Source: a virus
Taxonomy: Duplodnaviria; Heunggongvirae; Uroviricota; Caudoviricetes
IMG/VR virus record: IMGVR_UViG_3300026488_000017
Location: 40,396-104,395 of that record
Direction: 5' to 3' (one strand)
Length of the DNA stretch: 64,000 nt
A program made the translations under genes and the position numbers. How positions within the stretch are numbered: the stretch's first letter is position 1; every line of letters begins with the position of its first letter. The notes under the pieces were generated by a model. It was not told the origin of the DNA. It did not search any database and saw only the letters and a program-made list of their open reading frames with translations. Positions 90 through 61,671 of this stretch are shown here, one piece after another.

Positions 90-1127
90 CTATCTCTTTA
101 ATGGAATCTTTCCACTCTTTATTGTATCTCTCCAATATTGTAGTAAGTCCTCGAACATCTTTTGGACTGGTATCTCTGGTTCCCAATCGATGTATTCTTT
201 GACCTTAGAACAGCTAAACATTTGATAATCGGCATCACATTGTCTTAACCGTGATGTATCCACAGTCGTTTGAATATCTTTAACGGTACTCATACCACAT
301 AATAAATCTCTCACTTCTGTAAGATGAAATGCTTCTACACCTGCTATATTGAAATAGTCGCCATTCTTAATTTCTTCTTTTTCTGAAGCTAACATTAATA
401 GGTAATATGCTCTAACAGCATCCCTTGCATCTTGAAATGTCCTAGTACTGTCAAGATTACCTAATTCTAAGATAGGTTCTTGTAAACCTGCTTCAATCAT
501 AGCAATCTGTTTAGCTAATGTACTTTCAAAGAAAATATCACTTCTTCTAGGACCTGAGTGAGTACCCATTCTAGTAATAAATGTTTTCATATTGTAAGCT
601 TCACCATAAAACTGACCTAAATAATCTGTACCAATTTTAGAAATGCTATAAGGAGAAGCACCGTGAAATTTTGTATCTTCATTTAGTGTAACGCCTTTTT
701 CTGCTTTACCATATACTTCTGAGCTTGAACAAATATGAACGACTGGATTATAACCATCACGCTCTTTAAGCTGTCGTACAGACTCAACAATATTTGCTGT
801 ACCCATTATGTTTGTTTGTAATGTTTCTAATGGAGCCTCGAAGCTAACCTTAGGAAAAGACTGTGCTGCTAAATGGCTAATGAAATCAGGTCTATGCACT
901 TCAATCATTCTGCTTATACTAGAATAATCAATTAAATCGGCATTGTGTATAGTGATACGGTCATTTTTGTTGATTCTATCTGTTAAGTGATAGATATTGT
1001 CGAGAGGTTCTTGCCACCTCATCATACCGATAATATCCCAATCAGTATTTTCTAAGATGAAATCAGCCATAGTACTACCTACTTGACCAGTGATTCCTGT
1101 AATTAATATTTTTTTATTTATTTTCAT
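90..1127 (-). CDS. NAD-dependent GDP-sugar 4,6-dehydratase (Gmd / GDP-manno-heptose 4,6-dehydratase-like, SDR family)
   Basis: N-terminal Rossmann motif ILITGITGQVGS; length (345 aa) and overall resemblance to GDP-mannose 4,6-dehydratases; sits at the end of the GDP-heptose gene cluster. Confidence 0.65.
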   Translation of the reverse strand: MKINKKILITGITGQVGSTMADFILENTDWDIIGMMRWQEPLDNIYHLTDRINKNDRITIHNADLIDYSSISRMIEVHRPDFISHLAAQSFPKVSFEAPLETLQTNIMGTANIVESVRQLKERDGYNPVVHICSSSEVYGKAEKGVTLNEDTKFHGASPYSISKIGTDYLGQFYGEAYNMKTFITRMGTHSGPRRSDIFFESTLAKQIAMIEAGLQEPILELGNLDSTRTFQDARDAVRAYYLLMLASEKEEIKNGDYFNIAGVEAFHLTEVRDLLCGMSTVKDIQTTVDTSRLRQCDADYQMFSCSKVKEYIDWEPEIPVQKMFEDLLQYWRDTIKSGKIPLKR

Positions 1128-1135
1128 TTGATTCC

Positions 1136-1166
1136 TTATATAGTATTATAACTAAATGTTGCTTAA
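1136..1166 (-). promoter_or_regulatory. promoter-like element (minus strand TATAAT, plus-strand attata 1145-1150) upstream of the dehydratase gene
   Basis: tagtattataact; 15-20 nt before the RBS and ATG at 1127. Confidence 0.4.
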
Positions 1167-1885
1167 AATTCTTCCGTAAATCTGTGAGTGGGGTTGTACC
1201 AATTTGGTTTCATTTCGATTCTAGTATCTTTATCTTCAAAGAATTTCTCTTTAGCTTCTTTATCTGTGATGCTATCCCAATATTTACCCATTGATTCAAC
1301 TAATTCCCATTTACCTATCGTGTCGTGACCAGAAAGATTCACAACTGAAGGTGAATTAGCCCATCTGCGTACCATTTGTACAAGACCATCTTTAACATCT
1401 TCTAAATGTATTATATTTCTTTCATAATCTAAAAATACATCGACTCTTTCCTGGGATTGCACATATTTACAAAATCCATCTTCAAAACCTTCAATATCCG
1501 AAAAAACATAAGATAATCTAGCTATATGAACATTGTCGTTGGTCTCACAATAAGCCTCGATGTGCTTCTTGCTTATACTGTAAGGTGTGTCTTTACCTAG
1601 AACTACATCTGAGCTCAAGAAAATAACACGATTGTTTTCTGTTATATCTTGTATGGCTCTAATAGTACCATCTGCTACTCTAGCAGTCTTCTTAGGATGT
1701 TTTAAGCATTCAGCAGGTTTTGCCATTCCAGCAGTGAAAATGTATGTCCAACCTTGACCGAAATCCATACTCTCATAGTTTTCTAAATCAAATCTCTTTA
1801 CTACCGGCATACCTTGTGAAAATAAATAACTCCCCACAAAACCATTACCTATTACTCTAACTTTATTTTTGTCTGTATAGCTCAT
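1163..1885 (-). CDS. NAD(P)-dependent sugar-nucleotide reductase/epimerase (RmlD-like; candidate GDP-4-keto-6-deoxyheptose reductase)
   Basis: GxGxxG motif VIGNGFVGS near the N-terminus; start moved to the internal Met (ATG at 1885, preceded by AAGGAAAA) to reduce overlap with gmhB; adjacent to the dehydratase. Confidence 0.45.
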   Translation of the reverse strand: MSYTDKNKVRVIGNGFVGSYLFSQGMPVVKRFDLENYESMDFGQGWTYIFTAGMAKPAECLKHPKKTARVADGTIRAIQDITENNRVIFLSSDVVLGKDTPYSISKKHIEAYCETNDNVHIARLSYVFSDIEGFEDGFCKYVQSQERVDVFLDYERNIIHLEDVKDGLVQMVRRWANSPSVVNLSGHDTIGKWELVESMGKYWDSITDKEAKEKFFEDKDTRIEMKPNWYNPTHRFTEEF

Positions 1886-2333
1886 CGAATTTTCCTTCTT
1901 TATATAATATAAAATTTTTGACTCCAGCTGATACTGAAGCTTGATAATCACTATCTTTATCGCCTATCATCGTAGATTGACTCATATCGATACTGTATTT
2001 CTTTTGTGCATCTAATAACATACCTGGATTTGGTTTTCTTGACCAATGATTCCCTTCAGGTGTAAATGGCGAATGATACACATCTGTTATATTTATGCCG
2101 TACTCTTTTAAATCTCTTATCATTAATTTCATTAGCACTTGGAAGTCTTCTACTGTGTAGTAGCCTCTACCAATACCAGATTGATTCGTAACAATAATAA
2201 TAGTGTGTTCGGGGAATTTTTCTATAATATAACCAAGGACATCATAATTATACTCTAATTTTTCGTACTGATAGAAATAGCCATCAGGGTCTTTGTTGAT
2301 AACGCCGTCCCTATCTAAAAATAATGTTTTCAC
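1863..2333 (-). CDS. gmhB: D-glycero-D-manno-heptose 1,7-bisphosphate phosphatase (HAD family)
   Basis: N-terminal LFLDRDGVIN, the classic GmhB/HAD DxDGV motif; about 156 aa. Confidence 0.75.
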   Translation of the reverse strand: MKTLFLDRDGVINKDPDGYFYQYEKLEYNYDVLGYIIEKFPEHTIIIVTNQSGIGRGYYTVEDFQVLMKLMIRDLKEYGINITDVYHSPFTPEGNHWSRKPNPGMLLDAQKKYSIDMSQSTMIGDKDSDYQASVSAGVKNFILYKEGKFDELYRQK

Positions 2334-2344
2334 TTAGACTCCTC

Positions 2345-2384
2345 ATTTAGAGTATTATAACATAAGCAACCTTAAAGGCTTATA
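2345..2384 (-). promoter_or_regulatory. conserved phage promoter motif (extended -10 TGTTATAATA plus CCTTAAAGG)
   Basis: agtattataacataagcaaccttaaaggctt upstream of gmhB. Confidence 0.45.
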
Positions 2385-3015
2385 AAAAAGTCTTAGCTTT
2401 CTCATAATCCTCAGGAACACCAATATCTATAAATTGGCTGTCATTTCTGATTACGGTAACAAAATCTTTATATCTCTCTAAGAATTCTTCGAATGAGAAT
2501 TGCTCAGGTAAATCTTTGAATACTGCTTTGTGTAGAATATAAACACCTGAATTGATATAACCAGCTTCAGTATGCCCTTTTTCTTTGAATCGGATTTTAC
2601 CTTCTTCTATTTCCTCTACATAGCCGTAACGAGAGCAGTCGTCCTGATAAATTAAATTCATATTGATTAATGATGTAGGGTCTTGAAGCTTTACATCAGC
2701 AAATGTATCGCCGTTAAGGACGATGAGATATTCTGTACCTATTTCTTGAAATGCTAATTTGATAGCACCACCAGTACCTAAGGCATACCCTTCTTCTACA
2801 TAACGGACTGAATCTTTATAATAATCTTTGATGTAGTCTTTCATATAACCTACACCCAACCATATAGCGTGTTTTTTATATCTGTTAATAAGAATGTCTA
2901 GGAATGGTTTACCATTGATGTCAGCCATCGGCTTTGGTCTGTCAGCTACGACGCTCTGAAGCCTTGTACCCTTACCACCGGCCAGAATGAGTACTGGTAT
3001 ATTCTCTAATTTCAT
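2380..3015 (-). CDS. hddC: D-glycero-alpha-D-manno-heptose 1-phosphate guanylyltransferase (sugar-1-P nucleotidyltransferase)
   Basis: VLILAGGKGTRLQSVVADRPKPMADINGKPFLD nucleotidyltransferase signature; about 211 aa, typical HddC size; lies in the gmhA/hddA/gmhB context. Confidence 0.65.
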   Translation of the reverse strand: MKLENIPVLILAGGKGTRLQSVVADRPKPMADINGKPFLDILINRYKKHAIWLGVGYMKDYIKDYYKDSVRYVEEGYALGTGGAIKLAFQEIGTEYLIVLNGDTFADVKLQDPTSLINMNLIYQDDCSRYGYVEEIEEGKIRFKEKGHTEAGYINSGVYILHKAVFKDLPEQFSFEEFLERYKDFVTVIRNDSQFIDIGVPEDYEKAKTFL

Positions 3016-3581
3016 ACAGATTTCTTAGCATCAAATTCATCGACTGCATATGCTAATTCGTGCATTATCAAATCGTGTACAACCTGAATAACTGGTGTCG
3101 AATCAGAAGCCACCTTGATAAAATTAATGCCATCAAGATATTGCATTGTACCACCCGTTGAACCCGTTATGATAATGGTTCTCATACCCTTTTTCTTAGC
3201 TACTTTGATAGCCTCGATAATATTTTCTGAATTTCCAGATGTAGTGAACCCGATGAATAAATCGCCTGATTCTCCCATAGCTTCTAGCTGTCGTGAAAAT
3301 ATTTCTTTGAAACCAAAATCGTTTCCTATAGCAGTAATGACGGTGTTATTTGCTGTTAAATCTACTGAAGGGTAACCTCTTCGTGTTGTCATAAATTTTC
3401 CCACTATTTCGCCTACCAAATGTGACGCCGTAGCACAAGAACCACCGTTACCAGCTACATAAATTGTATTTTCTGATTTTAATGTTTCTTTGATTAAACT
3501 TTTACCTACACTCAAAGGAATTAAGTCGTGTTGTAAAGATTCTAAAGCCTTAATATGTTCTTCTATATTTTTGTTCATCAT
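3012..3581 (-). CDS. gmhA: phosphoheptose isomerase (SIS domain)
   Basis: SIS-domain motifs VAGNGGSCATASHLVGE and TTSGNSENI; 189 aa. Confidence 0.75.
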   Translation of the reverse strand: MMNKNIEEHIKALESLQHDLIPLSVGKSLIKETLKSENTIYVAGNGGSCATASHLVGEIVGKFMTTRRGYPSVDLTANNTVITAIGNDFGFKEIFSRQLEAMGESGDLFIGFTTSGNSENIIEAIKVAKKKGMRTIIITGSTGGTMQYLDGINFIKVASDSTPVIQVVHDLIMHELAYAVDEFDAKKSV

Positions 3582-3597
3582 AGTGTTTCCTTGTTTT

Positions 3598-3618
3598 GAT
3601 TATGTATTATACTGTAAA
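3598..3618 (-). promoter_or_regulatory. promoter-like -10 (gtattatac) upstream of gmhA
   Basis: motif variant; followed by the 20-nt palindrome 3619-3638. Confidence 0.35.
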
Positions 3619-3638
3619 GAAGCTTAATATTAAGCTTC
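3619..3638. other. perfect 20-nt palindrome GAAGCTTAATATTAAGCTTC (possible hairpin or protein-binding site) at the hddA stop / gmhA promoter junction
   Basis: read directly; contains two HindIII-type AAGCTT sites. Confidence 0.4.
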
Positions 3639-4643
3639 TACGACCCACGATTCAGCACCATATTCAGAAAATTGCACATCTTCTGCTTTACCACCGAATT
3701 TTTCTAAGGCTTCTTTCACCTTAAGCTTGGATTCAGGTGTCACCAAAAACATCATAAATCCAGATGCACCAGCTCCTGATAGCTTTCCAGCAAAGGCACC
3801 AGCAGTGATAGCTACACTAAAAAGATTATCCACATAAGCATTACTAATACTGTTAGATGTTTTCTTTTTTTCTTCCCAGGATTGATTCAGAATATTTCCT
3901 AATGAATGGCAATCAGATTTCAGAAGAGCTTCTTTCATCAGTAAAGCGGAATTCTTAAGCTCGTGTAATGCCTCTAATGATTTTTCGTTCTTTTGTGATT
4001 TTATTTGTTCTTCAATAACATCACCTGATGAACGCTGTTTACCCGTGAAATAAATCAGTAAGCTTGAAGAAAGCTCATTCATAAAAGACCGTTTGATTCT
4101 TAATGGATTTACAATCGTTTTATCTTTGTAAAATTCCATAAAATTCCAACCACCGTGAGTAGCACAGAATTGGTCTTGTTTTCCACCTTTTAGATTCAAA
4201 TCCTGGCGTTCAATTTCCCAAGCTAGTCCGGCTATGTCGTATTCACCTAAAGGTAGATTGTAGTATTCCACAAACGCTTGAATGATAGCTACGACCATTG
4301 TACTACTAGAGCCTAGACCTGAACCACCTGGTGCATCAGAATATGTTGTGATATTTAAAGAATCTCTATCGATGTATTTTCTGCCTATTAGACCTTCCCA
4401 AACACCTCTCATCAGTAAACAATTTTCATTCTCATATTCATTATCAAAAACATTTGCTTCTTTAATGTCGGTTGCTTTGAAATGCGTACCCATTGTGTTT
4501 GCTGATATTGTGCAGTAAGCATATTTATTGATAGTCACATTAAGAACATAACCACCAAAATCATCTGAATAAGGAGAAACATCTGTTCCACCTCCACCAA
4601 AACCTAATCTTAAAGGTGCTTTACTTCTTACTTTTCTTTTCAT
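3630..4643 (-). CDS. hddA: D-glycero-alpha-D-manno-heptose 7-phosphate kinase (GHMP kinase)
   Basis: GHMP motifs SKAPLRLGFGGGGTD and PGGSGLGSSS; start moved to the internal Met (4643) to remove the 56-nt overlap with the upstream gene. Confidence 0.7.
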   Translation of the reverse strand: MKRKVRSKAPLRLGFGGGGTDVSPYSDDFGGYVLNVTINKYAYCTISANTMGTHFKATDIKEANVFDNEYENENCLLMRGVWEGLIGRKYIDRDSLNITTYSDAPGGSGLGSSSTMVVAIIQAFVEYYNLPLGEYDIAGLAWEIERQDLNLKGGKQDQFCATHGGWNFMEFYKDKTIVNPLRIKRSFMNELSSSLLIYFTGKQRSSGDVIEEQIKSQKNEKSLEALHELKNSALLMKEALLKSDCHSLGNILNQSWEEKKKTSNSISNAYVDNLFSVAITAGAFAGKLSGAGASGFMMFLVTPESKLKVKEALEKFGGKAEDVQFSEYGAESWVVEA

Positions 4644-4650
4644 TAAATTT

Positions 4651-6156
4651 CTACCACTCATCTTCGTTAATCCCCTCTTCATCTTTTTCTTTACAGATTC
4701 TTTCAAAATCAGCTACTGTAGCAACTTTTGTCATTGTGCTCTTTCGTTTATTCTTTAAACGAATCTTAAATGTTTCTCTCTGTTCCATATATTCTTCATA
4801 AGTTTTTATCTTACTAAGTTTTGTCATAGCCCATCGATAATCTTTATCGGGAATACTGTGAAAGTCGCCTTTTCTAAAAAGTTCTACTTGGTCAAAATAT
4901 GTTCTAAGTTCCATCGCAAAGTGTAAATAAGTCTGTAATGAAATAGCATTAAGATGATTTCTAATACCTTCAATCTCTCCAAATTTCTCTTGAAAAGGTT
5001 TAATACCAGTCATACCATCTTCTCTCCAAGGTGAATATTTCTCTTGGAATTCTTTCCTAGAAAGTTTATTTCCACCTATCGTGTTCATAAGCAAATCTTC
5101 GTAAGCATCTTGTGTTTTCTGCATAAATTCTGCTACATCGGGTGCATCTTTATCTCTACCTAAACAACCCGATACGAGTTTTAATGAATGAGTTTCCTCT
5201 CCATCACGAATAAAAGATTCATCTACAAGTTTTGTATATTTACCGAATGTACTAGCACCAGTGTGTGAAGTTGAATCAAAAGTATAATGAACATCTTTAC
5301 CAAAGAAATCATTATTTAATGCAAATAAGACACCTGATTTAGATGGTCCACCTAATCCTAGAATATGTATAAGTTTTCTATGTTCTTCGGGTACCTCTGT
5401 TAAATCTCTAGGTGCTCTACAATATAAATCGAACATCTGAAAGTAAGGGATAATACCTGATGTAGCTAATGAAAGACCACCAATGTACTCAAAATATTCT
5501 GCTTTCTGTGCATCAGGCATTTCATTGAATACTGAATAAACACCACGAGCATATTCGTTATAGTCTTCGATTTCCCAACCTTGTACAATAACCATTACTT
5601 TAGTATCAGATTTTTCTTTCATAAAAACTTCAATTTGTTCTTTTATGTTAAATCCTGATTCTCGACCTGCATCAAATCTTAATTCTTCAACAAAATATTT
5701 AAGACTGTGGTCCATCTTCATACCTTGTCCAGCATTATTACTACCGGCTATAGTGTGTCGTTTTGCTTCATCCACTAGAATAGGCATCTTATCAAAACTC
5801 ATAGCGTGAGAACTAAATGTTGCTTGACATTTGTAGATTCCTAATTTGATTTCAGGTGTCATAGTTTTACCTAATGTGATAACCTGAAGTCCACCTGAAT
5901 CTGATTGTACCATTAATGTTTTCTCGGGAGTATTTAAACCTATGAGAATATCTTCTGTAGCCTGTTCTGTGAAAGCATTGTAAAGACTTCCTACACCACA
6001 ATGTTCTGTATAATCATCCAATCCAAATAGAACACCTTGAATAAATTCATCGTATTCTTTTGTCATATTTAATTTAACAGCGTGTCGTTGTATTAAGTGT
6101 AATCTTGTGAATGTGGTCATCGCTGATGCGATGTATGTTTTTTTGATATTTGCCAT
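4651..6156 (-). CDS. tRNA-guanine-transglycosylase-family protein, probable DNA 7-deazaguanine transglycosylase (DpdA-like)
   Basis: Three TGT-family motifs in the correct order: SDSGGLQV (compare DSGGFQ), IGGLSLATSG (compare GGLAVGE) and HILGLGGPS (compare YLMGVGxP); no CxCxxC zinc site; directly upstream of queE. Confidence 0.55.
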   Translation of the reverse strand: MANIKKTYIASAMTTFTRLHLIQRHAVKLNMTKEYDEFIQGVLFGLDDYTEHCGVGSLYNAFTEQATEDILIGLNTPEKTLMVQSDSGGLQVITLGKTMTPEIKLGIYKCQATFSSHAMSFDKMPILVDEAKRHTIAGSNNAGQGMKMDHSLKYFVEELRFDAGRESGFNIKEQIEVFMKEKSDTKVMVIVQGWEIEDYNEYARGVYSVFNEMPDAQKAEYFEYIGGLSLATSGIIPYFQMFDLYCRAPRDLTEVPEEHRKLIHILGLGGPSKSGVLFALNNDFFGKDVHYTFDSTSHTGASTFGKYTKLVDESFIRDGEETHSLKLVSGCLGRDKDAPDVAEFMQKTQDAYEDLLMNTIGGNKLSRKEFQEKYSPWREDGMTGIKPFQEKFGEIEGIRNHLNAISLQTYLHFAMELRTYFDQVELFRKGDFHSIPDKDYRWAMTKLSKIKTYEEYMEQRETFKIRLKNKRKSTMTKVATVADFERICKEKDEEGINEDEW

Positions 6157-6167
6157 TTATGTCCTTG

Positions 6168-6212
6168 TTGAGCGTATTATAACATTAATTTGCTTAATAT
6201 TACACGCCTGCC
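6168..6212 (-). promoter_or_regulatory. conserved promoter motif upstream of the TGT-family gene
   Basis: gcgtattataacattaatttgcttaatat. Confidence 0.4.
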
Positions 6213-6973
6213 TGATTGTTCCAGATGCGAATGTGGATTCTATCCGAATACTTGAAACCATTATCGATACATTTCTCCATAACAAATTTAGCATTTTCTT
6301 GAAGTGTTTCATTTGTATCACCAAGTGGCATTAAATAAACATCCATATATACTGGAATTGCTTTAAGAATCTCTTGAATCTCTTTGAAATCTTGCTCCCA
6401 AGATGCTTTAGAACATACAAATTTAAGGTACGATTTAGGTGACATTTCTACGATATTCGTTAAATTGTCGATATTGATTCTTTTGTGCTCTAACTCGCCA
6501 CTATTTGATAGTTTTACTGAAGTCGAAAACATTATCTCTTTTTGGTACTCGCGTGTAAAATTAATATCTAATGCACCATTAGTTTCGATTGTAATCTTAT
6601 GACCACGAGAAACATAGTGAGAAATAGTTCTTTGAAAAACTTCATCTTTCCAATAGATTAAAGGCTCTCCACCAGTGAATACAATATCAGGTTTCGTTAA
6701 AGAGTTCTTACCAAAATCGGGGATTGTAGCATCGATTCTCTCGACTAATTCTTCATATTCTGTGATAACATCCCATTCTTTTTTAAATGATTTATCGACT
6801 GAATAATACGAGTCACAACCAAATTTCTTTTCGCCTGTTATAGGGTCTTCATAAGGTACTTTAAACCCTGCACAAGTAAAATTACATAACGCACTTCTTA
6901 CAAATACAGAAGGGACTCCCATACGAGAACCCTCACCTTGTACTGAATAAAAACATTCCATTAATGAATACAT
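6200..6973 (-). CDS. queE: 7-carboxy-7-deazaguanine synthase (radical SAM)
   Basis: ECFYSVQGEGSRMGVPSVFVRSALCNFTC, plus TGGEP and ETNG motifs typical of QueE. Confidence 0.8.
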   Translation of the reverse strand: MYSLMECFYSVQGEGSRMGVPSVFVRSALCNFTCAGFKVPYEDPITGEKKFGCDSYYSVDKSFKKEWDVITEYEELVERIDATIPDFGKNSLTKPDIVFTGGEPLIYWKDEVFQRTISHYVSRGHKITIETNGALDINFTREYQKEIMFSTSVKLSNSGELEHKRINIDNLTNIVEMSPKSYLKFVCSKASWEQDFKEIQEILKAIPVYMDVYLMPLGDTNETLQENAKFVMEKCIDNGFKYSDRIHIRIWNNQAGV

Positions 6974-10127: not shown

Positions 10128-10175
10128 CTTTCTTTATATGTAATATTATAACATAAGCAACCTTAAAGGCTACTT
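10128..10175 (-). promoter_or_regulatory. conserved promoter motif (full copy)
   Basis: ctttatatgtaatattataacataagcaaccttaaaggct. Confidence 0.5.
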
Positions 10176-11458: not shown

Positions 11459-11530
11459 TTTCTTTATATGTAATATTATAACATAATCAACCTTAAGGCT
11501 TTATAAATATCAATAAAATATAGGTGAAAA
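11459..11530. promoter_or_regulatory. full promoter motif copy fused to a plus-strand promoter (TTTATAAATA) at a strand-switch; drives the ankyrin gene 11532
   Basis: ctttatatgtaatattataacataatcaaccttaaggctttataaatatcaataaaatataggtgaaaatATG; near-identical to the copy at 33296-33374. Confidence 0.45.
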
Positions 11531-11531
11531 T

Positions 11532-11939
11532 ATGAAAAGTTCATACGCTGATGATATTTGGTACACTGCTGCAACACTAAGCGATAATGCATTACTAAAA
11601 GATTTACACAAAGAAAAGATTCCAGGTATGGATATTTACTATGAGTTACATTCGTGTACACCATTTCAAGCAAGTTGCTATGAAAATAATGAAGAGGCAG
11701 CAAAACTGTTTATTAAATGGGGAGTAGATTTAGATAGAAAAGATGGTGATGGCGATACAATGCTTTCATATTGTTTCGATACCGAAAAGTGGTCAATAGT
11801 GTTAGAGATACTGAAACACAAACCGTCATTAGAAGGTATCAATGATTTCTTAATTACTCAAGCACCTAAAAGAATTCAGAAAGCATTCCAAAAAGTATCT
11901 GGTCTCAAAAAACTAGGTAAGTACGCAGATTTATTATAA
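11532..11939 (+). CDS. ankyrin-repeat protein with conserved C-terminal KKLGKYADLL tail
   Basis: ankyrin-like GDGDTMLSY repeat; C-terminus ...GLKKLGKYADLL is shared with four other ORFs in the window. Confidence 0.6.
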   Translation: MKSSYADDIWYTAATLSDNALLKDLHKEKIPGMDIYYELHSCTPFQASCYENNEEAAKLFIKWGVDLDRKDGDGDTMLSYCFDTEKWSIVLEILKHKPSLEGINDFLITQAPKRIQKAFQKVSGLKKLGKYADLL

Positions 11940-12161
11940 TAGCAAGTGAGGATGGTTCTCTTTGATTGTTTCTAGTAACTTCAAAGTTTTTGAATCTTCT
12001 ATCAGTTTACTAAATAGCATTTGAGCCTCTCGTTCTGTACCCTTTCTATAAACCCATTCATAGCTACCAGGTGACTCTCCAGTTTTTCGGTCTAAGACCA
12101 TTAAGACCATTCCACTCATAGTTTTCTTAAAATAAAATTTATCTCTTAGTGGTTTATCCAT
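11934..12161 (-). CDS. small hypothetical protein, PHLxL C-terminal family
   Basis: convergent with and overlapping the ankyrin gene stop; C-terminus LKLLETIKENHPHLLL is paralogous to 15014..15361. Confidence 0.4.
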   Translation of the reverse strand: MDKPLRDKFYFKKTMSGMVLMVLDRKTGESPGSYEWVYRKGTEREAQMLFSKLIEDSKTLKLLETIKENHPHLLL

Positions 12162-12241
12162 TCTGTGCCTCGTATATTATTTTTATGGCATAGTACACCT
12201 GAAGATGTGTACCACCATCGAATAAAATTTTAACAGCTTCT

Positions 12242-13537
12242 TCAAGCGTAAATATCATTGTACGAGAATTGCCCTAATTCCACTTCATTCCCCATTGGCA
12301 TAATAAGACCTTTCATCATATTATGAATAACTGCTTCAGGAATGAATTTCCCTTCAGTCTCGTTTCGTGTTACATTTCGTTCAAAAATAGTATCGTAATC
12401 AGTACAGAAAAAACGGCTTCTTGTATCATATTTTTTGAGACGCTCATTGAATTTTTGACGGTAACCTTTGTCTTTATTTTCTATCTGAAACGAGAACCAT
12501 TTTCTTCGTGCTTTAGGCCCAACATTTGTCATATCGATAATAATATCATCACCTCTTAGTACAGCACACTCGAACTGCGAACGAATCATACGGTCGATTT
12601 CTGATTGGTCGTCCGATGTAAGAAGCGTCCAAATCTCCCCATATTTAAGAGATTTCCCATATTTGAAGCGACCTAGCTCTAATAGTGTAGCGTCTCTGCT
12701 AATCACTGTGGTATCCTCATCGACATTCTCTTTAATATAAGTGCTCTTACCTGATAGCGGTACGCCTACGAGTGCTGTGATACTACGGTCACTAATGATT
12801 CTAGTGCCTTCATCCATATCTCTATCAGGCCAGAATTTGTCCATAAAAGGCTTACCATAAAGAACGGTACCTAGCAATGAACCTTCATCAGACCTAGCAT
12901 CAGCAGATGGTGAGAAACGACCAGTGGAATCATAACGAACCTGATTAACAAATAACGGAAATAAACTTTTGTGGTTTTTCCATCGTTCTGCTACTTTCTC
13001 AGGTTTGTGCTCTTTACCATCCTTGATGCTGTCAAAAAGTGTACCGTGTAATGAGATAATCGTAAGCACATCTTGCATTTCTGAAGGAAAAATCACACCC
13101 ATTTTCACAAGCTCTTGTAACGGCTTTACAGCTTTATATACTGAAATCCCTTCGTGGCCTCTGAAATGCGTTTTCCATTCTCTAGCTAAAGCCTTTGTCT
13201 TAGAGTGCTCTTTATCCGCCTCACGAAGCTCGTTAGATTCTGTGTGGGTAGGTTTAGGCTTATTGAATGGAATAACCTCTCTCGATGCTGGCTTACCAGT
13301 GTCGTGTAGTAATGCTGCTAAAAGATTTACTGTCTCAGCTCTATCATTCTGTGCTTGTAAACATACCATCATCGTGTGAGTCCATACAGAATCTTCCAAA
13401 TGATATGGATTAGGTTCTGAATCTACAGCGGCGTGATTACTAGCTTTCATTTCGTTAGCTAAATCTGTGAATTCCATTTGGAACCAATTCACTAGTTCTG
13501 CCATTGATGGTTTTTGTTTTTCTTTAAAATAATTCAT
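12242..13537 (-). CDS. HD-domain phosphohydrolase fused to P-loop kinase domain (polynucleotide kinase/phosphatase-like)
   Basis: N-terminal HD motif H...LLHDTGKP; C-terminal Walker A GVPLSGKSTYIKE. Confidence 0.5.
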   Translation of the reverse strand: MNYFKEKQKPSMAELVNWFQMEFTDLANEMKASNHAAVDSEPNPYHLEDSVWTHTMMVCLQAQNDRAETVNLLAALLHDTGKPASREVIPFNKPKPTHTESNELREADKEHSKTKALAREWKTHFRGHEGISVYKAVKPLQELVKMGVIFPSEMQDVLTIISLHGTLFDSIKDGKEHKPEKVAERWKNHKSLFPLFVNQVRYDSTGRFSPSADARSDEGSLLGTVLYGKPFMDKFWPDRDMDEGTRIISDRSITALVGVPLSGKSTYIKENVDEDTTVISRDATLLELGRFKYGKSLKYGEIWTLLTSDDQSEIDRMIRSQFECAVLRGDDIIIDMTNVGPKARRKWFSFQIENKDKGYRQKFNERLKKYDTRSRFFCTDYDTIFERNVTRNETEGKFIPEAVIHNMMKGLIMPMGNEVELGQFSYNDIYA

Positions 13538-13548
13538 TTTTATTCCTT

Positions 13549-13632
13549 CTTATTATATGTATTATAACATACCGTTACTTAAAGGCTCATTAAGGCTCAT
13601 TGAATTTATAAATACTTTCAAAAGGTGACAAT
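13549..13632. promoter_or_regulatory. divergent promoter region (minus: HD/kinase gene; plus: ankyrin array)
   Basis: atatgtattataacataccgttacttaaaggctc ... ttgaatttataaatactttcaaaaggtgacaatATG. Confidence 0.45.
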
Positions 13633-14244
13633 ATGGATTTTGATTCTGAAACTCTTCAGTACTACATAATGAAAGGTAAAGTAATGGAACTAAAGGCAGA
13701 AGAGAAAAAAGGTACGCTTAAGAAATTAGTGAATGTGGATTTTGATAATGGTAAGTCACCACTTAATACAGCCATTTACAAAAAAACATCTACTATCGTG
13801 ACTATATTAATCGATAATGGTGCTGATGTAAATTACATAGATGGTAATGGTGGTCTCCCATTAGTGAATTCTGCCAACACAAACACTTTCATTATAGCTC
13901 CTTTACTCAAAGCTGGTGCTGAAGTAAACAAAGAGAGTACTTATGGTTCAACTGCTTTCACAAAAGTATTAGGTGATAGAGATAGAAAAGGTGAAGGTCT
14001 TGCTGTAGCACTTATATCTGATAAACATTTTGATATTACTAAAGAAGAATTTAAACCTGATATGCTTCTACAGCAATCGATTAAAAATAAATGGGATAGA
14101 GTAACGGCACTCATTCTCAAAACGGGATTTGATTTCGATTACGAGGACCTCAGAAATGTAGGTGATGGTACAAAAAAGATTATAGATAAACATCTAGGTC
14201 TAAAAAAATTAGGTAAGTACGCAGACTTACTAGGAGACATATAA
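13633..14244 (+). CDS. ankyrin-repeat protein with KKLGKYADLLGDI C-terminus
   Basis: ankyrin repeats (SPLNTAIY...NGADVN...GNGGLPLV...AGAEVN); conserved tail. Confidence 0.6.
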   Translation: MDFDSETLQYYIMKGKVMELKAEEKKGTLKKLVNVDFDNGKSPLNTAIYKKTSTIVTILIDNGADVNYIDGNGGLPLVNSANTNTFIIAPLLKAGAEVNKESTYGSTAFTKVLGDRDRKGEGLAVALISDKHFDITKEEFKPDMLLQQSIKNKWDRVTALILKTGFDFDYEDLRNVGDGTKKIIDKHLGLKKLGKYADLLGDI

Positions 14245-14723
14245 TGACTGTAAAACAATTTGAAGAAGAATTAGAAATGTATTCGGTAGACTTTGCTAAA
14301 GATGGAAGAACATTTTTAATGCAGTATGCAGAACTAGGTAATAATAAAATAGTTGATTACTTAATAAAGAAGAAAGCCAAATTAAATAAACAAGATGATA
14401 ATGGTATAACTGCTTTATATACTGCTGCCGTTAGGGATAGAAAATACATAGTAAATGCACTCATCAAAGCTGGTGCTGATGTAGATGTTCAAGATACTGA
14501 AGGAGATACGGCTCTTCATCGTGTAATGTACAATAGAGGTTCTAAGAAAATCGTAGAAATTCTTATACTAGCTGGTGCTGATTTAAGTATCAAAAATGAA
14601 GATGGTCATACAGCAGAAGATTTAATGATTGGTGAATACAAGAAAGTATTTTTATCATCAGTTAAAAAAGTGAAAGGTATGAAAAAATTAGGTAAGTACG
14701 CTGACTTGCTAGGAGATATATAA
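14244..14723 (+). CDS. ankyrin-repeat protein with KKLGKYADLLGDI C-terminus
   Basis: ankyrin repeats (NGITALYTAA, EGDTALHRV); conserved tail; ATG overlaps the upstream stop (ATAATG). Confidence 0.6.
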   Translation: MTVKQFEEELEMYSVDFAKDGRTFLMQYAELGNNKIVDYLIKKKAKLNKQDDNGITALYTAAVRDRKYIVNALIKAGADVDVQDTEGDTALHRVMYNRGSKKIVEILILAGADLSIKNEDGHTAEDLMIGEYKKVFLSSVKKVKGMKKLGKYADLLGDI

Positions 14724-15019
14724 TGAGTAGAGTTAGAATAACAGCTGTCATAGATGGTACATTCTATTACACTAGGTCGTATGAGGATAATGAATCACTA
14801 AAAGCTAGTGTAGATAGTATAGCAAATAGCGAAGTGAAGACACAGCTATTACGCTCAGATGCCAAAGAGTTATCGTATGAAAAATTTCTGAATGATTACA
14901 AAGATGGTAAGAATATTGTTTATTTTTGGATGGATGGTAAATGGATTAAAGATACAACGAAGAATATTATTAAAAATATTGCTCGTAAAAAAATAGGTAA
15001 ATACGCAGACCTATTATAG
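14723..15019 (+). CDS. hypothetical protein with KKIGKYADLL C-terminus (no ankyrin)
   Basis: shares only the C-terminal peptide with the ankyrin family. Confidence 0.45.
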   Translation: MSRVRITAVIDGTFYYTRSYEDNESLKASVDSIANSEVKTQLLRSDAKELSYEKFLNDYKDGKNIVYFWMDGKWIKDTTKNIIKNIARKKIGKYADLL

Positions 15020-15361
15020 AAATAAGTGAGGTTCATTTTCTTTGAGCTTCAGAATATCTACCCCAAAACCTTCTAACAAAAAATCATAATAATCAATAAG
15101 ATTTTCTACACGATTTAGATTTTCCATTACATTCCAAAATAAAGATGTTATTCTATTCATATCAGAAGCTTGTACTGATACAGAACCAAACGCACAACGA
15201 CCAAAATCCCCAACAATAGCATTGTACTCAAAATATAACATACCCAAAGAAATTTTATCTTTCTCGATGATTCGTTTCTCCTTGTGTTTCAGGACCCAAT
15301 TCTTGATATATTCTTTACCATAGAGAGTAGGGTTGTCAAAAGAGTTGATGTGTACTATCAT
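15014..15361 (-). CDS. hypothetical protein, PHLxL C-terminal family
   Basis: C-terminus LKLKENEPHLFL is paralogous to 11934..12161; convergent with and overlapping the end of the array. Confidence 0.4.
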   Translation of the reverse strand: MIVHINSFDNPTLYGKEYIKNWVLKHKEKRIIEKDKISLGMLYFEYNAIVGDFGRCAFGSVSVQASDMNRITSLFWNVMENLNRVENLIDYYDFLLEGFGVDILKLKENEPHLFL

Positions 15362-16627: not shown

Positions 16628-16675
16628 TGTCTTTATATGTAATATTATAACATAAAGAACCTTAAGGTGTACTGA
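16628..16675 (-). promoter_or_regulatory. conserved promoter motif (full copy)
   Basis: ctttatatgtaatattataacataaagaaccttaaggtgt. Confidence 0.5.
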
Positions 16676-17504: not shown

Positions 17505-17545
17505 TTTACTGTATTATAACATAAAAATACTTAAAAGGAGATTAA
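17505..17545 (-). promoter_or_regulatory. promoter motif variant
   Basis: actgtattataacataaaaatacttaaaagg. Confidence 0.4.
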
Positions 17546-19272
17546 ATCTTCATCACAAGTTTTATGTAAATATGGCGCTCTTCAAAATCTGTACCTGAAC
17601 CCAAAACTCTCCCCGTGTCATTCGTGATATTCTTTACGCTAACTTTAATATAATCTTTTGAAAACTTGTACTTATAATAAACATCAAATTGATTGTAACC
17701 ATAGTTATGCTCTTTGATTCTAATATCTGCTTTGTCTGCTTCTGATAATGTCGTACTTTCTTTAGCAAATTTATGAGTTACTCCAGCACCGTAGTATTCT
17801 ATTCTCGTATCAGTTCTGAATGGTGTAATCTTTGAGATATAATCGATATTAGTTCTACCATAAACATACTCAGCAAAGAAATCTATGATGAATTTATTGC
17901 TCTCATAGACTAAGTTCGTGTTAGCACCATAAGTGTATCCATTCTCTGCATTTGTCACTTGAAACATATCTGAGCCATCAGGAGCAACAATATATGTCTT
18001 CTCTCTCGTTATCATATCTTCTAGTATATTATAGAACATAGTCCCTTTGTACTTGAAGTTTTGGTATCTAGCTGTGTAACCTATTTCAGTCTTAATGCTC
18101 GTTTCTTTCTTCAAATCGGGGTTAGGTATCTCATAAAGGCTATCAGAAACTGCTTCGTTTAGATTATAGATTGTCGGGTATTTGTAACCTTGTGCTATAC
18201 TTAAATATATTCCTTTGTACTCACCTTTAACACCTACACCTACATTCCAAAAGTTTTTATCTGCTATAGTTGCATAATCAGCAATTACACTAGCACTGTA
18301 TTTGAAATCTTTATAATTCTCAAAATAGTTTAGAGCTATACTGTTATCTATAACATCGTAGTTCTTCTTATCTTTGTTGTACTTCTGGTATTCTATATCT
18401 TCAAATTTGTGTTTCGTTGTCATAATCAGTTCATCACTAAAATAATACTCATTCCTAATCTGATAGATATTATTATTTGATTTATCGATTTTTTCTACAC
18501 CATTTCTAGGATTGTTTACATTCTCGTAGAAGTTCTGATAAGAAATCTTTAATATATAATCCTGATTAACCATAAAATCCTTAAAGAAACCTAAATAATA
18601 TTGTTTATCATAGATTCTCGGTTCTCCTTTAAGGAATTTATCAGTTCTATCTATTTCATCGCTTCGTGTGTAAATCAGTTTGTATCTGTTTTTCTCTAAA
18701 TAGATGCCCTTTTGATTATAATTTGTGTGTGCTTGTTCACCATCTGGAGTTACTACACTTCTTTTGTCCTCATATATAGCACCTAGTTTCAAATCTTCAT
18801 CTTGAAAAGAAGTAAAGACTTTTCCACCATTGATATAATTCTGAATTTGTATTGTGTTTGAGTTCGATTCTAAGAACCCTAAATGTCTATTGATTGAACC
18901 ACCAAAAGAATTATTACTAATATCATCAACACCTTTATTAAGTGAAATATCTTGTACGAATTCATTAGGGATATAAGAATAATATTGATTAGGCCCACTT
19001 CTAAAAAGTGAGTTCGTAAAATCCATTTCATCAACTGTAAGATTAATCTGGTCGCCTTGTAAACCTCTATATATGGGCTGTCTGAAACCTGGGGTGGTTT
19101 CTTGGATTTGAACAGCTCTCTCTGCGTGTTCGTTATTGTCTGTGTTTTCTAGTTGATTCACAAATAGAACTTCTCGTTGAAAGGGTGCTGAAGTAATAGT
19201 AATTTCTTTTAGTACGATTGTTTCTTGTGCAAATACAATCGTACTAGCTAGAATTAATGTTAATAGTTTCAT
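17542..19272 (-). CDS. TonB-dependent-receptor-like outer-membrane beta-barrel protein
   Basis: signal peptide MKLLTLILASTIVFAQE; plug-domain-like YRGLQGDQINLTVDEM and FGGSIN; Tyr/Asn-rich beta-strand-like C-terminal two-thirds. Confidence 0.45.
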   Translation of the reverse strand: MKLLTLILASTIVFAQETIVLKEITITSAPFQREVLFVNQLENTDNNEHAERAVQIQETTPGFRQPIYRGLQGDQINLTVDEMDFTNSLFRSGPNQYYSYIPNEFVQDISLNKGVDDISNNSFGGSINRHLGFLESNSNTIQIQNYINGGKVFTSFQDEDLKLGAIYEDKRSVVTPDGEQAHTNYNQKGIYLEKNRYKLIYTRSDEIDRTDKFLKGEPRIYDKQYYLGFFKDFMVNQDYILKISYQNFYENVNNPRNGVEKIDKSNNNIYQIRNEYYFSDELIMTTKHKFEDIEYQKYNKDKKNYDVIDNSIALNYFENYKDFKYSASVIADYATIADKNFWNVGVGVKGEYKGIYLSIAQGYKYPTIYNLNEAVSDSLYEIPNPDLKKETSIKTEIGYTARYQNFKYKGTMFYNILEDMITREKTYIVAPDGSDMFQVTNAENGYTYGANTNLVYESNKFIIDFFAEYVYGRTNIDYISKITPFRTDTRIEYYGAGVTHKFAKESTTLSEADKADIRIKEHNYGYNQFDVYYKYKFSKDYIKVSVKNITNDTGRVLGSGTDFEERHIYIKLVMKI

Positions 19273-19281
19273 AATGTTCCT

Positions 19282-20343
19282 TTATGTTTGTAGAATACCG
19301 AAAGATACTAATAATACAGCCCAAACGATTAAGACTGTGTAATATCTTACGATAGGTGTACCGAAATAAGTTTTGCTTATAACAACACATTTATGGACAG
19401 GTGATAACAAATAACCTGCAAAGTCAATAGCAAATAACACGACAAAATATGCTGGGCCAAATATTAATGTCAAGTACGATACTATCCCCGAAAATCTTGA
19501 AGATGAACCTAAACTAAACGATACAAAGAACGATAGCATAGCAACCATTATGAAAGAACTTTCTGCTGAGGCATAAGAGTGAAACCACTCTAGTACACCT
19601 GATTCTCTAATAAAATTACCCAAGATGATGCTTACAGCAACATAACCGAGTACCCAATAGTTCAGCGTCTTGTGGATTTGTTTCAGTAAATCAAGATTCA
19701 ATTCTGTCCCATAGAAATACATTTTTAACCCTATAACAGAAAGAAACAATACACCGAACACTATTGCTGGATTAAAGAAAAATATACCTATTAGACTCAT
19801 TATAAAGAACAATCCTGCTAGTTTATCAAATAGTGAAAATTTGATATTCTTTAGTTCTTCCTCTGAAAAATTGTACTTCAATACTGTATCTTTAGGTAGA
19901 ATAAAATAAATTGTTACTCCTATATATAGAAAAGTAATAATCAATAATGGATAAATTAATGTTATGATACTATAATATGTTAGACCAAGAACTGCCATTG
20001 GGATAATGATTGTCTTCTCTAATGGGTTCCATAAGTAGTAATGGTGAGAACTTAGATAATCTATAATACCTAAATTTTCTCTTACTTCTTTGTCGTTGTC
20101 TTTTGCTATGATATTATCTAAGACTCCTGCCGTTAAAGACACTCTTCCTGGAACTGGTAGCATACCCGCAAACAGACTGAAAACAAAAAGTGTTAATCTG
20201 GTATCTTTGAGTCTGTTATGTAGTTTGTAGAACAAGCCAGTAAAGAGTGGAGAATCATACAATAATCCTGCAATAGACATAATAAATGCCAAGAACAAGA
20301 TATAATGTAGATTAGATAATAGAGTTAAGAACTCTAGTTCCAC
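19282..20343 (-). CDS. polytopic integral membrane protein (about 9-10 TM)
   Basis: hydrophobic segments throughout; immediately upstream of the OMP-like gene. Confidence 0.45.
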   Translation of the reverse strand: MELEFLTLLSNLHYILFLAFIMSIAGLLYDSPLFTGLFYKLHNRLKDTRLTLFVFSLFAGMLPVPGRVSLTAGVLDNIIAKDNDKEVRENLGIIDYLSSHHYYLWNPLEKTIIIPMAVLGLTYYSIITLIYPLLIITFLYIGVTIYFILPKDTVLKYNFSEEELKNIKFSLFDKLAGLFFIMSLIGIFFFNPAIVFGVLFLSVIGLKMYFYGTELNLDLLKQIHKTLNYWVLGYVAVSIILGNFIRESGVLEWFHSYASAESSFIMVAMLSFFVSFSLGSSSRFSGIVSYLTLIFGPAYFVVLFAIDFAGYLLSPVHKCVVISKTYFGTPIVRYYTVLIVWAVLLVSFGILQT

Positions 20344-21008
20344 TATTTCTTCTTTATTAGTTCGTTAAGTTGTAAAGCTGGAATCAACCCATTATCTTGC
20401 GAAATCTGTTTGATGTATGCATTCTCTGATGCACTCAAATATAGATTAGAAGCAGTTGCTTGTGAAATTGCACTATCAACTATAAGTTTTTGTGTCGAAT
20501 CATCTAACATTAAAATAGCATCTAAGATACCTTTACCAATTCTACCACCAGTCATAATATCAATCTGAGCTTCTTTAATGAATTTATTAATCCAGTAAAG
20601 TTCTTCACCTTTTTCATCAGCAAGAATAGTCTTTGGGTCGCCTTGTTCTTTAAGTCTATCAAAGTTTGCTTCAAATACATTGATTTCATATTTGTAATTT
20701 GATAGAGTCTTTTTGAGTGTCTTTAGTTTTATCTTTTGTTTTTTGATTTCTACTAATTTCATCTTGAACGATATAGAACCATCTTCTAAGTCGCATAAAT
20801 CTTCATTTAGACCTTCGAACACAAGGTCTTCCATTTCTAAATCAAGTTCTAAATCTTCTAAGCCACCGTATCGTGTACCTAGTTCTAGTAAAACTTGTTT
20901 AAGCATTCTATAATTGGTCATCTTATCATTGATAACAAATTTATCAATTTGGTATTCTGACATCGTAGTACTTTGAGCTTCTATAAGCTCTTCTATTTCA
21001 TTTCTCAT
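20343..21008 (-). CDS. hypothetical protein
   Basis: ORF with 1-nt overlap to the downstream gene. Confidence 0.4.
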   Translation of the reverse strand: MRNEIEELIEAQSTTMSEYQIDKFVINDKMTNYRMLKQVLLELGTRYGGLEDLELDLEMEDLVFEGLNEDLCDLEDGSISFKMKLVEIKKQKIKLKTLKKTLSNYKYEINVFEANFDRLKEQGDPKTILADEKGEELYWINKFIKEAQIDIMTGGRIGKGILDAILMLDDSTQKLIVDSAISQATASNLYLSASENAYIKQISQDNGLIPALQLNELIKKK

Positions 21009-33295: not shown

Positions 33296-33374
33296 AACCT
33301 TTTCTCTTTATATGTAATATTATAACATATCTAACCTTAGAGCTTTATAAATACCAATAAAATACGAGGCTATT
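33296..33374. promoter_or_regulatory. divergent promoter region, full motif copy plus plus-strand TTTATAAATA promoter
   Basis: ctctttatatgtaatattataacatatctaaccttagagctttataaataccaataaaatacgaggctattATG. Confidence 0.45.
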
Positions 33375-41147: not shown

Positions 41148-41196
41148 ATCCTTTATATACAATATTATAACATAAAGGACCTTAAAGCTTTATTAA
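41148..41196 (-). promoter_or_regulatory. conserved promoter motif
   Basis: ctttatatacaatattataacataaaggaccttaaagcttt. Confidence 0.45.
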
Positions 41197-42972: not shown

Positions 42973-42974
42973 TT

Positions 42975-44339: not shown

Positions 44340-44340
44340 A

Positions 44341-45531: not shown

Positions 45532-45532
45532 A

Positions 45533-60870: not shown

Positions 60871-61281
60871 CTATAAGAGGTCTGCGTACTTACCTAATTT
60901 TTTCTTTGTATTAAGATATGTTTTTATTGTATCTTGAACCATAGATGGAGCATAGTCGTAATAATTTTTCCCTGCGTATTTAAGGTCTAATGAAGGTTTC
61001 TTTTCCAAAATCATCATCATTATTTTTTCGTTGTAAAAACCTGGTTTGACAGCCCAATGCATAGCACTTCTACCATCATCACTCTGTAGGTTAATATCTG
61101 CACCATTTTTCAATAACAGCTCTACTATTTTCTCGTAGCTTTTGAATATAGCAAGATGTAAAGCAGTCCAACCGAATGAACCTTTCTCATCGATATTGTC
61201 GTACTTTTTTATGATGGCTTTGATGCCTTTAATGTCATTATCTTTGACTAGGTCTGTTAGTGTATCTCTGGTCTTTGTCAT
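60871..61281 (-). CDS. ankyrin-repeat protein with KKLGKYADLL C-terminus
   Basis: GWTALHLAIF...NGADINLQSDDGRSAMHWAV ankyrin repeats; same conserved C-terminal peptide as the 11.5-15 kb array. Confidence 0.6.
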   Translation of the reverse strand: MTKTRDTLTDLVKDNDIKGIKAIIKKYDNIDEKGSFGWTALHLAIFKSYEKIVELLLKNGADINLQSDDGRSAMHWAVKPGFYNEKIMMMILEKKPSLDLKYAGKNYYDYAPSMVQDTIKTYLNTKKKLGKYADLL

Positions 61282-61302
61282 AATACCCTCTTTTATGGGT
61301 AT

Positions 61303-61671
61303 TTATAGCAAATCTTCAGGATGGTATAAATGGCTGTAATAGTTTAAATAGGTTTTGTGAATGTCTGATGCTATCTCTCTATCGACTAAGAAATTTTGTT
61401 CTATCATTCTTCTTATGGGGCCCACTATCATATTTACTTGACCCGTTTCTTGAATATTTTTCATCCATACAAGATGTTCTTTTGTTACACCATCAGGTAT
61501 AAGACCCTCTGATTTTAATGAATCATATCCTATGTAAAAATCTGGTTCGGGTTCGGGTTCGATTTCAGGAATGTTCCCGTATTCAATCTCATATAATTTT
61601 AATGCTTTTGAATCAGTAAGATAGCCACTATAAAAACTCATAACTTCATTTTTTACTTCATTCATTGTCAT
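61303..61671 (-). CDS. hypothetical protein
   Basis: ORF. Confidence 0.4.
   Translation of the reverse strand: MTMNEVKNEVMSFYSGYLTDSKALKLYEIEYGNIPEIEPEPEPDFYIGYDSLKSEGLIPDGVTKEHLVWMKNIQETGQVNMIVGPIRRMIEQNFLVDREIASDIHKTYLNYYSHLYHPEDLL

Follow-up and report, generated by a model that had tools for sequence, protein, structure and literature searches.

A conserved C-terminal peptide, putatively a docking tag, on ankyrin-repeat and other predicted late proteins of an uncultured T4-superfamily jumbo phage

A 64,000-nucleotide stretch of viral DNA (positions 40,396 to 104,395 of IMG/VR record IMGVR_UViG_3300026488_000017, hereafter the window) encodes five proteins that terminate in the same peptide, KK[LI]GKYADLL, here called the tail. 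A first-pass annotation of the window had reported these five open reading frames (ORFs), and all of them were confirmed with this ending, two carrying an extra GDI (Table 1). The back-translated tail pattern matched the window five times, versus 0.00 matches expected from 100 dinucleotide-preserving shuffles. The annotation had described the plus-strand genes as a tandem array. This is correct for g13633, g14244 and g14723, which form a translationally coupled trio, but g11532 is a separate unit behind two intervening minus-strand genes, and its stop codon overlaps the stop codon of the convergent gene 11934-12161. At the first junction of the trio, codons 14233-14241 of g13633 (GGAGACATA) serve as Shine-Dalgarno sequence, and the TAA stop codon overlaps the ATG of the next gene. 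Ankyrin repeats had been assigned to four of the five genes. Three of these exceed the Pfam gathering score for ankyrin (27.3 bits), namely g13633 (31.6), g14244 (97.8) and g61281 (48.1). The fourth, g11532, scores 21.5 bits and is below the cut-off, but it is related to its paralogs by BLASTP (E 6e-5). A Pfam scan of g14723 gave no ankyrin repeat.

Table 1. Coordinates of the tail genes, promoter elements and other terminal-motif genes. Positions refer to the window unless a label is given; L001, L003, L004, L020, L021, L024 and L026 are stretches of the window's genome outside the window. aa, amino acids; nt, nucleotides; CTS, capsid targeting sequence.
Feature	Position	Strand	Remarks
g11532	11532..11939	+	135 aa; weak ankyrin-like body; tail ...GLKKLGKYADLL; stand-alone unit
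Tail codons (KKLGKYADLL) of g11532	11907..11936	+	
g13633	13633..14244	+	203 aa; ankyrin repeats, then KKLGKYADLL and GDI
g14244	14244..14723	+	159 aa; strong ankyrin match (Ank_2, E 5e-28); tail and GDI; translationally coupled to g14723
g14723	14723..15019	+	98 aa; non-ankyrin body; tail RKKIGKYADLL; last gene of array
g61281	60871..61281	-	136 aa; ankyrin repeats; tail KKKLGKYADLL; immediately upstream of UvsX-like recombinase gene
Late box TATAAATA	11502..11509	+	22 nt before g11532 ATG; back-to-back with minus-strand early-type element 11462-11488
Late box TATAAATA	13607..13614	+	18 nt before g13633 ATG; serves three-gene array
Late box TATAAATA	61300..61307	-	18 nt before g61281 ATG; built from CTA-TAA-ATA stop context of upstream gene 61303-61671
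CTTTATGTTATAATATTACATATAAAG elements	10132-10158, 11462-11488, 16631-16657, 33306-33332, 41151-41177, 51133-51159, 61828-61854	all -	
974-aa AAA+ and 689-aa metallopeptidase/vWA-like genes	L026 4967-10001; ENA contig ~309.8-314.9 kb		both behind late boxes
ORFs with CTS-like leader	45533-45796, 41193-41417, 47448-47789; L001 5405-6097, 7030-7611; L026 13688-14416	- (window)	
ORFs with second C-terminal motif	11934-12161, 15014-15361, 32471-32902, 61303-61671, 61870-62205; also L003 2173-8218, L004, L021	all - (window)	
ORFs with acidic-Trp tail	47825-50749, 4651-6156, 62662-63147; L023 5770-6933	- (window)	

An exact-protein look-up revealed that the window belongs to a 331,651-bp ENA contig (ERZ27262635 k141_314747), and that it is also present in a Logan assembly. 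The G+C content of the window is 33%. It encodes a family-B DNA polymerase with 23% identity to T4 gp43 (E 6e-54), a UvsX-like recombinase and a DnaB/gp41-like helicase, together with long-tail-fibre, baseplate-wedge and tail genes. Because of this T4-like gene content and the size of the contig, the genome is that of an uncultured T4-superfamily jumbo phage of 331 kb. Its polymerase is at most 30% identical to any polymerase of the phage collection, and a search of the 'phages' collection (50,697 phage records) gave no DNA-level relative of the window. The IMG/VR records UViG_3300026488_000015 (146.5 kb) and _000025 (79.6 kb), which comprise L001-L004 and L019, are pieces of the same genome, and counting them as independent phages would overstate conservation. 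The JGI/IMG/VR contigs Ga0256838_1000015 and _1000069 were considered as a second phage that conserves the tail and were rejected, since P0004 and P0008 map to the 331,651-bp contig of the window, at positions 294,887-319,835. The tail copies on these contigs are therefore paralogs and not orthologues.

The family is larger than the five genes first reported. The genome contains 26 distinct ORFs with the tail motif, always at the extreme C-terminus and never internal, and this number is a lower bound because the paralogs were counted in roughly half of the 331-kb genome. Further tail ORFs that were detected by DNA pattern scans of IMG/VR and JGI metagenomes lie on two contigs of one metagenome and belong to the same genome. 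Across the 26 copies the core of the tail is nine residues, K-[LI]-G-K-Y-A-D-L-L. The preceding K, which had been counted as part of the tail, is present in 19 copies only. Within the core, K, G, K, Y, A and the first L of the final pair are found in all 26 copies, as is L or I at the second position, while the last L is found in 25 and D in 22, being replaced by A or S in the others. Entropy is 0 at the core positions, whereas all positions further upstream have 2.8-3.7 bits. The synonymous codon differences that had been pointed out earlier are present in the tails: AAG and AAA occur 11 and 15 times, TAC and TAT 15 and 11 times, GCA, GCT and GCC 11, 7 and 8 times, GAC and GAT 12 and 10 times, and all six Leu codons are used. 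The codons at invariant residues are as varied as genome-wide usage predicts, or more. Codon diversity near the genome expectation combined with invariant amino acids bears out the proposal of selection at the protein level.

The bodies that carry the tail are diversified and partly unrelated, as had been supposed. Without their tails, the members share only generic ankyrin similarity (23-45% identity), and several share nothing; about 7 of the 26 have no ankyrin match in Pfam or PHROGs, and PHROG matches are confined to the ankyrin part. As judged from these sequences, purifying selection on the peptide is shown to maintain the tail. Because the bodies have diverged while the tail peptide is invariant, the members are old paralogs or domain-shuffled genes, whose last nine residues are under very strong purifying selection. 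Conservative exchanges (K/R, Y/F and D/E) are almost wholly absent from the 26 tails. This argues for recognition of the tail by a specific, putative protein pocket rather than for a bulk physicochemical role.

The first-pass annotation knew of no described family with this tail, and our searches agree: it is covered by no Pfam, PHROG or PDB entry, and no record of the motif was found in the literature searched. A weak PDB match of the tail profile to the basic flank of an RNASEH2B PIP-box peptide (E 0.39) was judged to be a chance match. DNA pattern scans of viral, metagenome and genome collections detected the tail in this genome only, apart from chance matches such as L016, and it was absent outside this genome from the 185,579 prokaryotic genomes scanned. 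Word-indexed protein searches revealed nothing beyond this genome except the protein P0002. An exhaustive profile search of 1.84 billion representatives returned the paralogs of this genome, P0002 and one repeat artefact, and a tail-only profile had no match at E <= 10 in a 5.8-billion-protein database. All these searches have limited sensitivity for a nine-residue motif, and tails of greater divergence may exist elsewhere. P0002, from another ENA sample, is a 65%-identical orthologue of g14723 which keeps TKKLGKYADLL, and the flanking residues differ. The annotation had regarded its own proposal as refuted if the similarity were a recent duplication confined to these genes. Only one phage lineage does indeed carry the tail, but its paralogs are of ancient rather than recent origin, and the 65% orthologue from another sample keeps the tail.

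Structural models suggest that the tail is a flexible appendage. In the AlphaFold2 model of g14244 (single sequence), an ankyrin solenoid is followed by a C-terminal helix (residues 131-144) and by an appendage (146-159) with a predicted local distance difference test score (pLDDT) below 50, in which a short helix at YADLL is undocked from the ankyrin domain. The model of g14723 is a low-confidence alpha/beta fold with no solenoid, and its tail is of low confidence too. If the tail is drawn as a helix, it is strongly amphipathic, with a hydrophobic moment (muH) of 0.58. In 18 of the 26 copies, one to three residues follow LL, often ending in D, R or S, so that a free carboxylate at LL is not required. 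The extension GD[ID] is encoded by GGAGA(T/C), one codon (mostly ATA or GAC) and TAA, and the stop codon overlaps the next ATG. Six GD[ID] junctions were checked, and each is immediately followed by a further tail gene. Of the members with LL as their very last residues, six were checked, and each is the final gene of its unit. Thus, GD[ID] is the Shine-Dalgarno sequence plus the overlapping stop and start codons of the next cassette, a by-product of translational coupling. Two array junctions share about 35 nearly identical nucleotides, which cover the tail end, the late box and the ribosome-binding site. The arrays probably grew by unequal crossing-over at this conserved tail and junction sequence.

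The octamer TATAAATA is the consensus of T4 late promoters, and the late genes of T4 encode mainly virion, assembly and lysis proteins. This box is located 18-22 nucleotides upstream of the ATG in all three tail units of the window. It also precedes, at this same distance, the tail-gene units in L003, L004 and L020; the unit in L001 has a box with one mismatch, and in a large cluster elsewhere in the genome late boxes stand ahead of each sub-operon. The same box and spacing, with a similar ccaATAAAa...GAGG leader, are found at the tail-fibre gene 26372-29716 and at the operons starting at 33375, 38080 (phage tail genes) and 45796. Nine of the 12 boxes of the window lie 11-35 nucleotides before a start codon in the right orientation, which is true of about 2% of strand positions. 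A scan for sigma70-type promoters upstream of the tail genes gave nothing above chance. These promoter positions lead us to infer late expression of the tail genes, together with the genes for virion components.

Some late boxes are made from the stop context (T/C)TA-TAA-ATA of the upstream gene (61300-61307, L026 11933 and 13662, and L003 2170), and genes preceding late boxes therefore tend to end in Leu. This explains some, not most, of the endings in which Leu precedes the stop codon. A near-palindromic element, CTTTATGTTATAATATTACATATAAAG, which includes an extended -10 sequence (TGTTATAAT), has seven copies in the window versus 0 expected, and most of the checked copies are upstream of minus-strand genes. 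At 11462/11502 and 33306/33346 this element and a late box stand back-to-back, forming two nearly identical bidirectional cassettes. The elements resemble the 'promoter-early stem-loop' cassettes of T4. A 184-aa protein ending in SLLDLLF was considered as gp55 and is not detectably gp55. The late operon 41419-45796 had no match in PDB or Pfam.

Outside the window, several tail genes lie beside genes for virion components. One sits between the large terminase gene and a gene for a gp15-like sheath stabilizer, and another follows a capsid-protein-like gene whose product starts with MENSMELITE, which resembles the propeptide of gp24. Within a cluster of 13 tail genes two other genes intervene, one a Pfam T4_neck-protein gene and the other encoding a leader like the T4 CTS. 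Such leaders, M-(K/T)-x-F-K-(D/E)-(L/F)-I-x-E, start several small late ORFs of this genome, which are candidate internal head proteins; they resemble the T4 sequence MKTYQEFIAE with its (L/I)-x-E protease site. The start of the 13-gene cluster is translationally coupled to a gene for a 689-aa metallopeptidase/vWA-like protein, which itself follows a gene for a 974-aa double AAA+ (MoxR-type) protein; five tail genes are coupled to the 689-aa gene. An AAA+/vWA pair has been described in group 2.2 jumbo phages, with a proposed role in virion assembly (PMC7824862), and the pair found here corresponds to this putative chaperone. In Ralstonia phage RsoM2USA, the homologous pair is not followed by an ankyrin or tail array, so that the AAA+/vWA pair does not require the tail family.

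We consider it very probable that the tail is a functional docking peptide on late proteins. As for its purpose, the best explanation, which we put forward tentatively, is virion targeting, with the tail as a docking or address peptide for a putative late partner. A single conserved receptor protein that is available late in infection would recognise the tail, and the tail would most likely recruit the varied binding modules into or onto the assembling virion, that is, to the head, the neck or the capsid surface. At the next infection, the recruited modules might either enter along with the DNA or be on display. Among the roles first suggested for the tail (targeting, docking or packaging), packaging or docking fits best because of the late-promoter context. 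A complete C-terminal address-tag system, which loads or displays at least 26 ankyrin-repeat binders and a few other domains in or on the virion, parallel to the N-terminal CTS of T4, is possible but doubtful. If it existed, each particle would carry diversified pre-made effectors, such as inhibitors of host defence, takeover factors or adhesins. The tail would then be a second, C-terminal route for many proteins into or onto a T4-type virion and would reveal a large phage repertoire of ankyrin binders, with host defence, takeover and adhesion as possible targets. A portable tag of nine residues with a single receptor would also be useful for cargo loading or for display on phage particles.

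Several points weigh against virion targeting. The term 'late' rests on a promoter consensus transferred from T4, and no gp55 homologue was found in the readable parts of the genome, which are roughly half of it. The family is confined to one lineage. The tail genes are scattered over many late operons, so that their adjacency to head and neck genes may only reflect the insertion sites of cassettes. Furthermore, other late proteins of this phage carry T4-type CTS-like leaders at their N-termini, and head packaging may thus already have another signal. The phage is uncultured, and the receptor is so far putative.

The closest known systems share the principle and differ in the details. In the ANK/PRANC proteins of poxviruses, as here, a viral multigene family combines variable ankyrin target-binders with a constant C-terminal element, which plugs all members into one common machine. 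However, the PRANC element of about 50 residues folds into an F-box-like domain and has eukaryotic Skp1 as its partner, whereas the tail is a nine-residue linear motif in a phage with a bacterial host and late expression. A Pfam scan of the window tail genes found no PRANC or F-box family at E <= 1, and the conserved region is 9-10 residues. The CTS of T4 (IPI-III and Alt) is likewise a terminal peptide of about 10 residues shared by unrelated late proteins, and it directs these to the prohead, from which they are injected together with the DNA. It is N-terminal and has the (L/I)-x-E prohead-protease site, whereas the tail is C-terminal in all 26 copies and contains neither Glu nor such a site. 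CTS-like leaders are present on other late proteins of this genome, which would make the tail an additional signal distinct from them. Short C-terminal peptides, often basic and amphipathic, that bind the inner face of an HK97-fold shell are also known from encapsulin cargo (cargo-loading peptides) and from the P22 and 80alpha/CpmB scaffolds (coat-binding C-terminal helices). Like the cargo-loading peptides, the tail is a short C-terminal peptide shared by unrelated proteins, but KLGKYADLL does not fit the encapsulin consensus, which is rich in Gly, Ser and Leu and of the (L/I)xxGSL type. Encapsulin cargo genes lie next to the shell gene, whereas only one of the 26 genes follows a capsid-like gene. 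A constant terminal element on variable binders or cargo is a known principle; what is new here is the peptide itself, its placement at the C-terminus in a T4-type phage, the large size of the ankyrin repertoire and its predicted late expression.

Among the other explanations, the one that survives best, though we regard it as unlikely, is that the tail docks the ankyrin proteins as interchangeable substrate or client adaptors on a late, non-virion enzymatic hub. Candidate hubs are the MoxR-type AAA+ and metallopeptidase/vWA pair, a Clp-type unfoldase and the gp45 sliding clamp. SspB for ClpX and the poxvirus ANK/F-box proteins for SCF are precedents for such adaptors. SspB-type adaptors have the same layout as the proteins here, with a domain that binds substrate joined by a flexible linker to a short docking peptide at the C-terminus, although the ClpX-binding XB peptide (of the LRVVK type) has no sequence similarity to the tail. 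For the AAA+/vWA pair speak the co-transcription and coupling of the largest array with the 689-aa gene directly after the 974-aa gene, and the near-invariant Asp of the tail, since vWA MIDAS sites bind an acidic ligand residue. On the other hand, the RsoM2USA homologues of the pair occur without such an array, and this Asp is replaced in four of the 26 copies. For the clamp speaks the resemblance of the x-(L/A)-D-(F/L)-L core to the C-terminal hydrophobic and acidic clamp-binding tails of unrelated T4 proteins, gp43 (...SLDFLFG) and gp55 (...SLDFLYEAND), the latter of which also tolerates a C-terminal extension. However, this likeness to the T4 motif (S/T)-L-D-F-L-(F/Y) is limited to three positions, the invariant G-K-Y has no counterpart in it, and the phage's own DNA polymerase ends in IDEDEW and has no KYADLL-like motif.

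A membrane-targeting role of the tail is improbable. In this reading the C-terminus would form an amphipathic helix of the MinD or FtsA kind, which parks the proteins on the inner membrane late in infection. Prohead assembly of T4 starts at the inner membrane, and the tail is suited to membrane binding by its high muH (0.27 for the E. coli MinD tail), by Lys residues flanking a Leu/Tyr/Ala face and by its position at the extreme C-terminus. But such helices need amphipathicity alone and hence drift by conservative substitution, whereas the G, K, Y and A of the tail do not vary among 26 paralogs of ancient divergence, and K/R, D/E and Y/F exchanges are absent. The comparison with MinD/FtsA-type helices shows an invariance of residue identity beyond mere periodicity, and a central Gly and an Asp are unusual for helices of this kind.

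There is a slim chance that the family associates with itself, the tail of one member being the ligand of the ankyrin grooves of others, so that the proteins link up in chains to a heteropolymer or a condensate, for example an inner body or assembly factory, with the non-ankyrin members as clients. Ankyrin grooves typically bind extended or helical peptides, most members hold both a potential receptor and the ligand, and many paralogs are co-expressed. Nevertheless, the ankyrin bodies are very divergent, BLAST comparisons show no evident conserved patch outside the framework, and AlphaFold2 does not dock the tail in cis.

A C-terminal degron, one of the roles that the annotation had offered, would mark the proteins for timed destruction by a ClpXP-, Lon- or Prc-type protease of host or phage. 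The hydrophobic C-terminal residues, the flexibility of the tail and its occurrence on unrelated proteins are consistent with this. The idea is weakened by the residues that bury LL in 18 of the 26 copies, often with a charged end, since classical C-degrons, including ssrA-like ones (ClpX C-motif 1), need a free nonpolar C-terminus. The invariance also reaches nine residues inward, and it is hard to rationalise why 26 proteins should be made from strong late promoters merely for degradation. We therefore give the degron little credence.

Still less probable is an 'ankyphage' scenario, in which the ankyrin proteins are effectors acting on a eukaryote that hosts the bacterium, which they reach by delivery or by release at lysis, and the tail is a eukaryotic sorting motif. 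Ankyrin repeats are typical of effectors of symbionts and pathogens, late synthesis comes before lysis, and YADL fits the sorting signal YxxPhi. But YxxPhi is too degenerate to account for an invariant motif of nine residues, neither dileucine consensus ([DE]xxxL[LI] or DxxLL) matches the tail, and inspection of the N-termini revealed no apparent signal peptides.

Hardly credible, finally, is a tail without peptide function, conserved as a DNA-level cassette boundary, recombination joint or remnant of recent duplication: the stereotyped array junction (tail, GGAGAT/C, ATA or GAC, TAATG), the two nearly identical stretches of about 35 nucleotides and the scattering of cassettes across the genome would suit it, but codon analysis largely refutes it, as there is no conservation of synonymous sites, the bodies are no longer recognisably alike, amino-acid entropy rises from 0 in the tail to about 3 bits beside it and the orthologue keeps the peptide in a different codon context, so that the recombination site once proposed fails as the cause of conservation and may still explain, through unequal crossing-over, how the arrays grew.

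Further short linear motifs were observed at protein termini of this genome. At least 18 small ORFs end in a second C-terminal motif, approximately F..Y[IL].[ED]N.P[HDAG]..[FLM][LI], for example KENHPHLLL, KENEPHLFL and LENRPDILL. One array in L003 contains seven of these ORFs, and they have no PHROG matches. They appear to sit in early-type gene arrays, and their motif may likewise serve for docking. A further ending is ...IDEDEW on the DNA polymerase, with ...INEDEW and ...DVEEW on two unrelated proteins; LIDEDEW also stands at the end of the polymerase of a 50%-identical IMG/VR relative. On sequence grounds, this acidic-Trp tail may be the replisome docking tail of the clade, in place of the T4 clamp motif SLDFLFG. 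One genome thus has several terminal short linear motifs, namely the tail described here, the P-x-x-hydrophobic-Leu tail, the acidic-Trp tail and the CTS-like leaders, which suggests that hub-and-peptide wiring is used extensively in jumbo phages.

Several other genes were noted. At the edge of the tail-fibre module, the minus-strand genes 17542-19272 and 19282-20343 encode a protein with a Pfam match to the beta-barrel of TonB-dependent receptors and an N-terminal hydrophobic leader, and an adjoining DUF401 membrane protein. The minus-strand region 90-6973 of the window contains nucleotide-sugar genes (epimerase, HAD, NTP-transferase, SIS and GHMP kinase) with a weak radical-SAM match, and L020 15151-17170, just outside the window, encodes GTP cyclohydrolase I, PTPS and a phosphoribosyltransferase. 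By their predicted functions, the two gene sets suggest DNA modification of the 7-deazaguanine type together with sugar modification of glycans or DNA. In L024, a gene at 18913-20534 (about 295-296.5 kb of the ENA contig) encodes a methyl-accepting chemotaxis protein with NIT, MCPsignal and CZB domains, which is either an unusual auxiliary gene of the phage or a hint to the host lineage.

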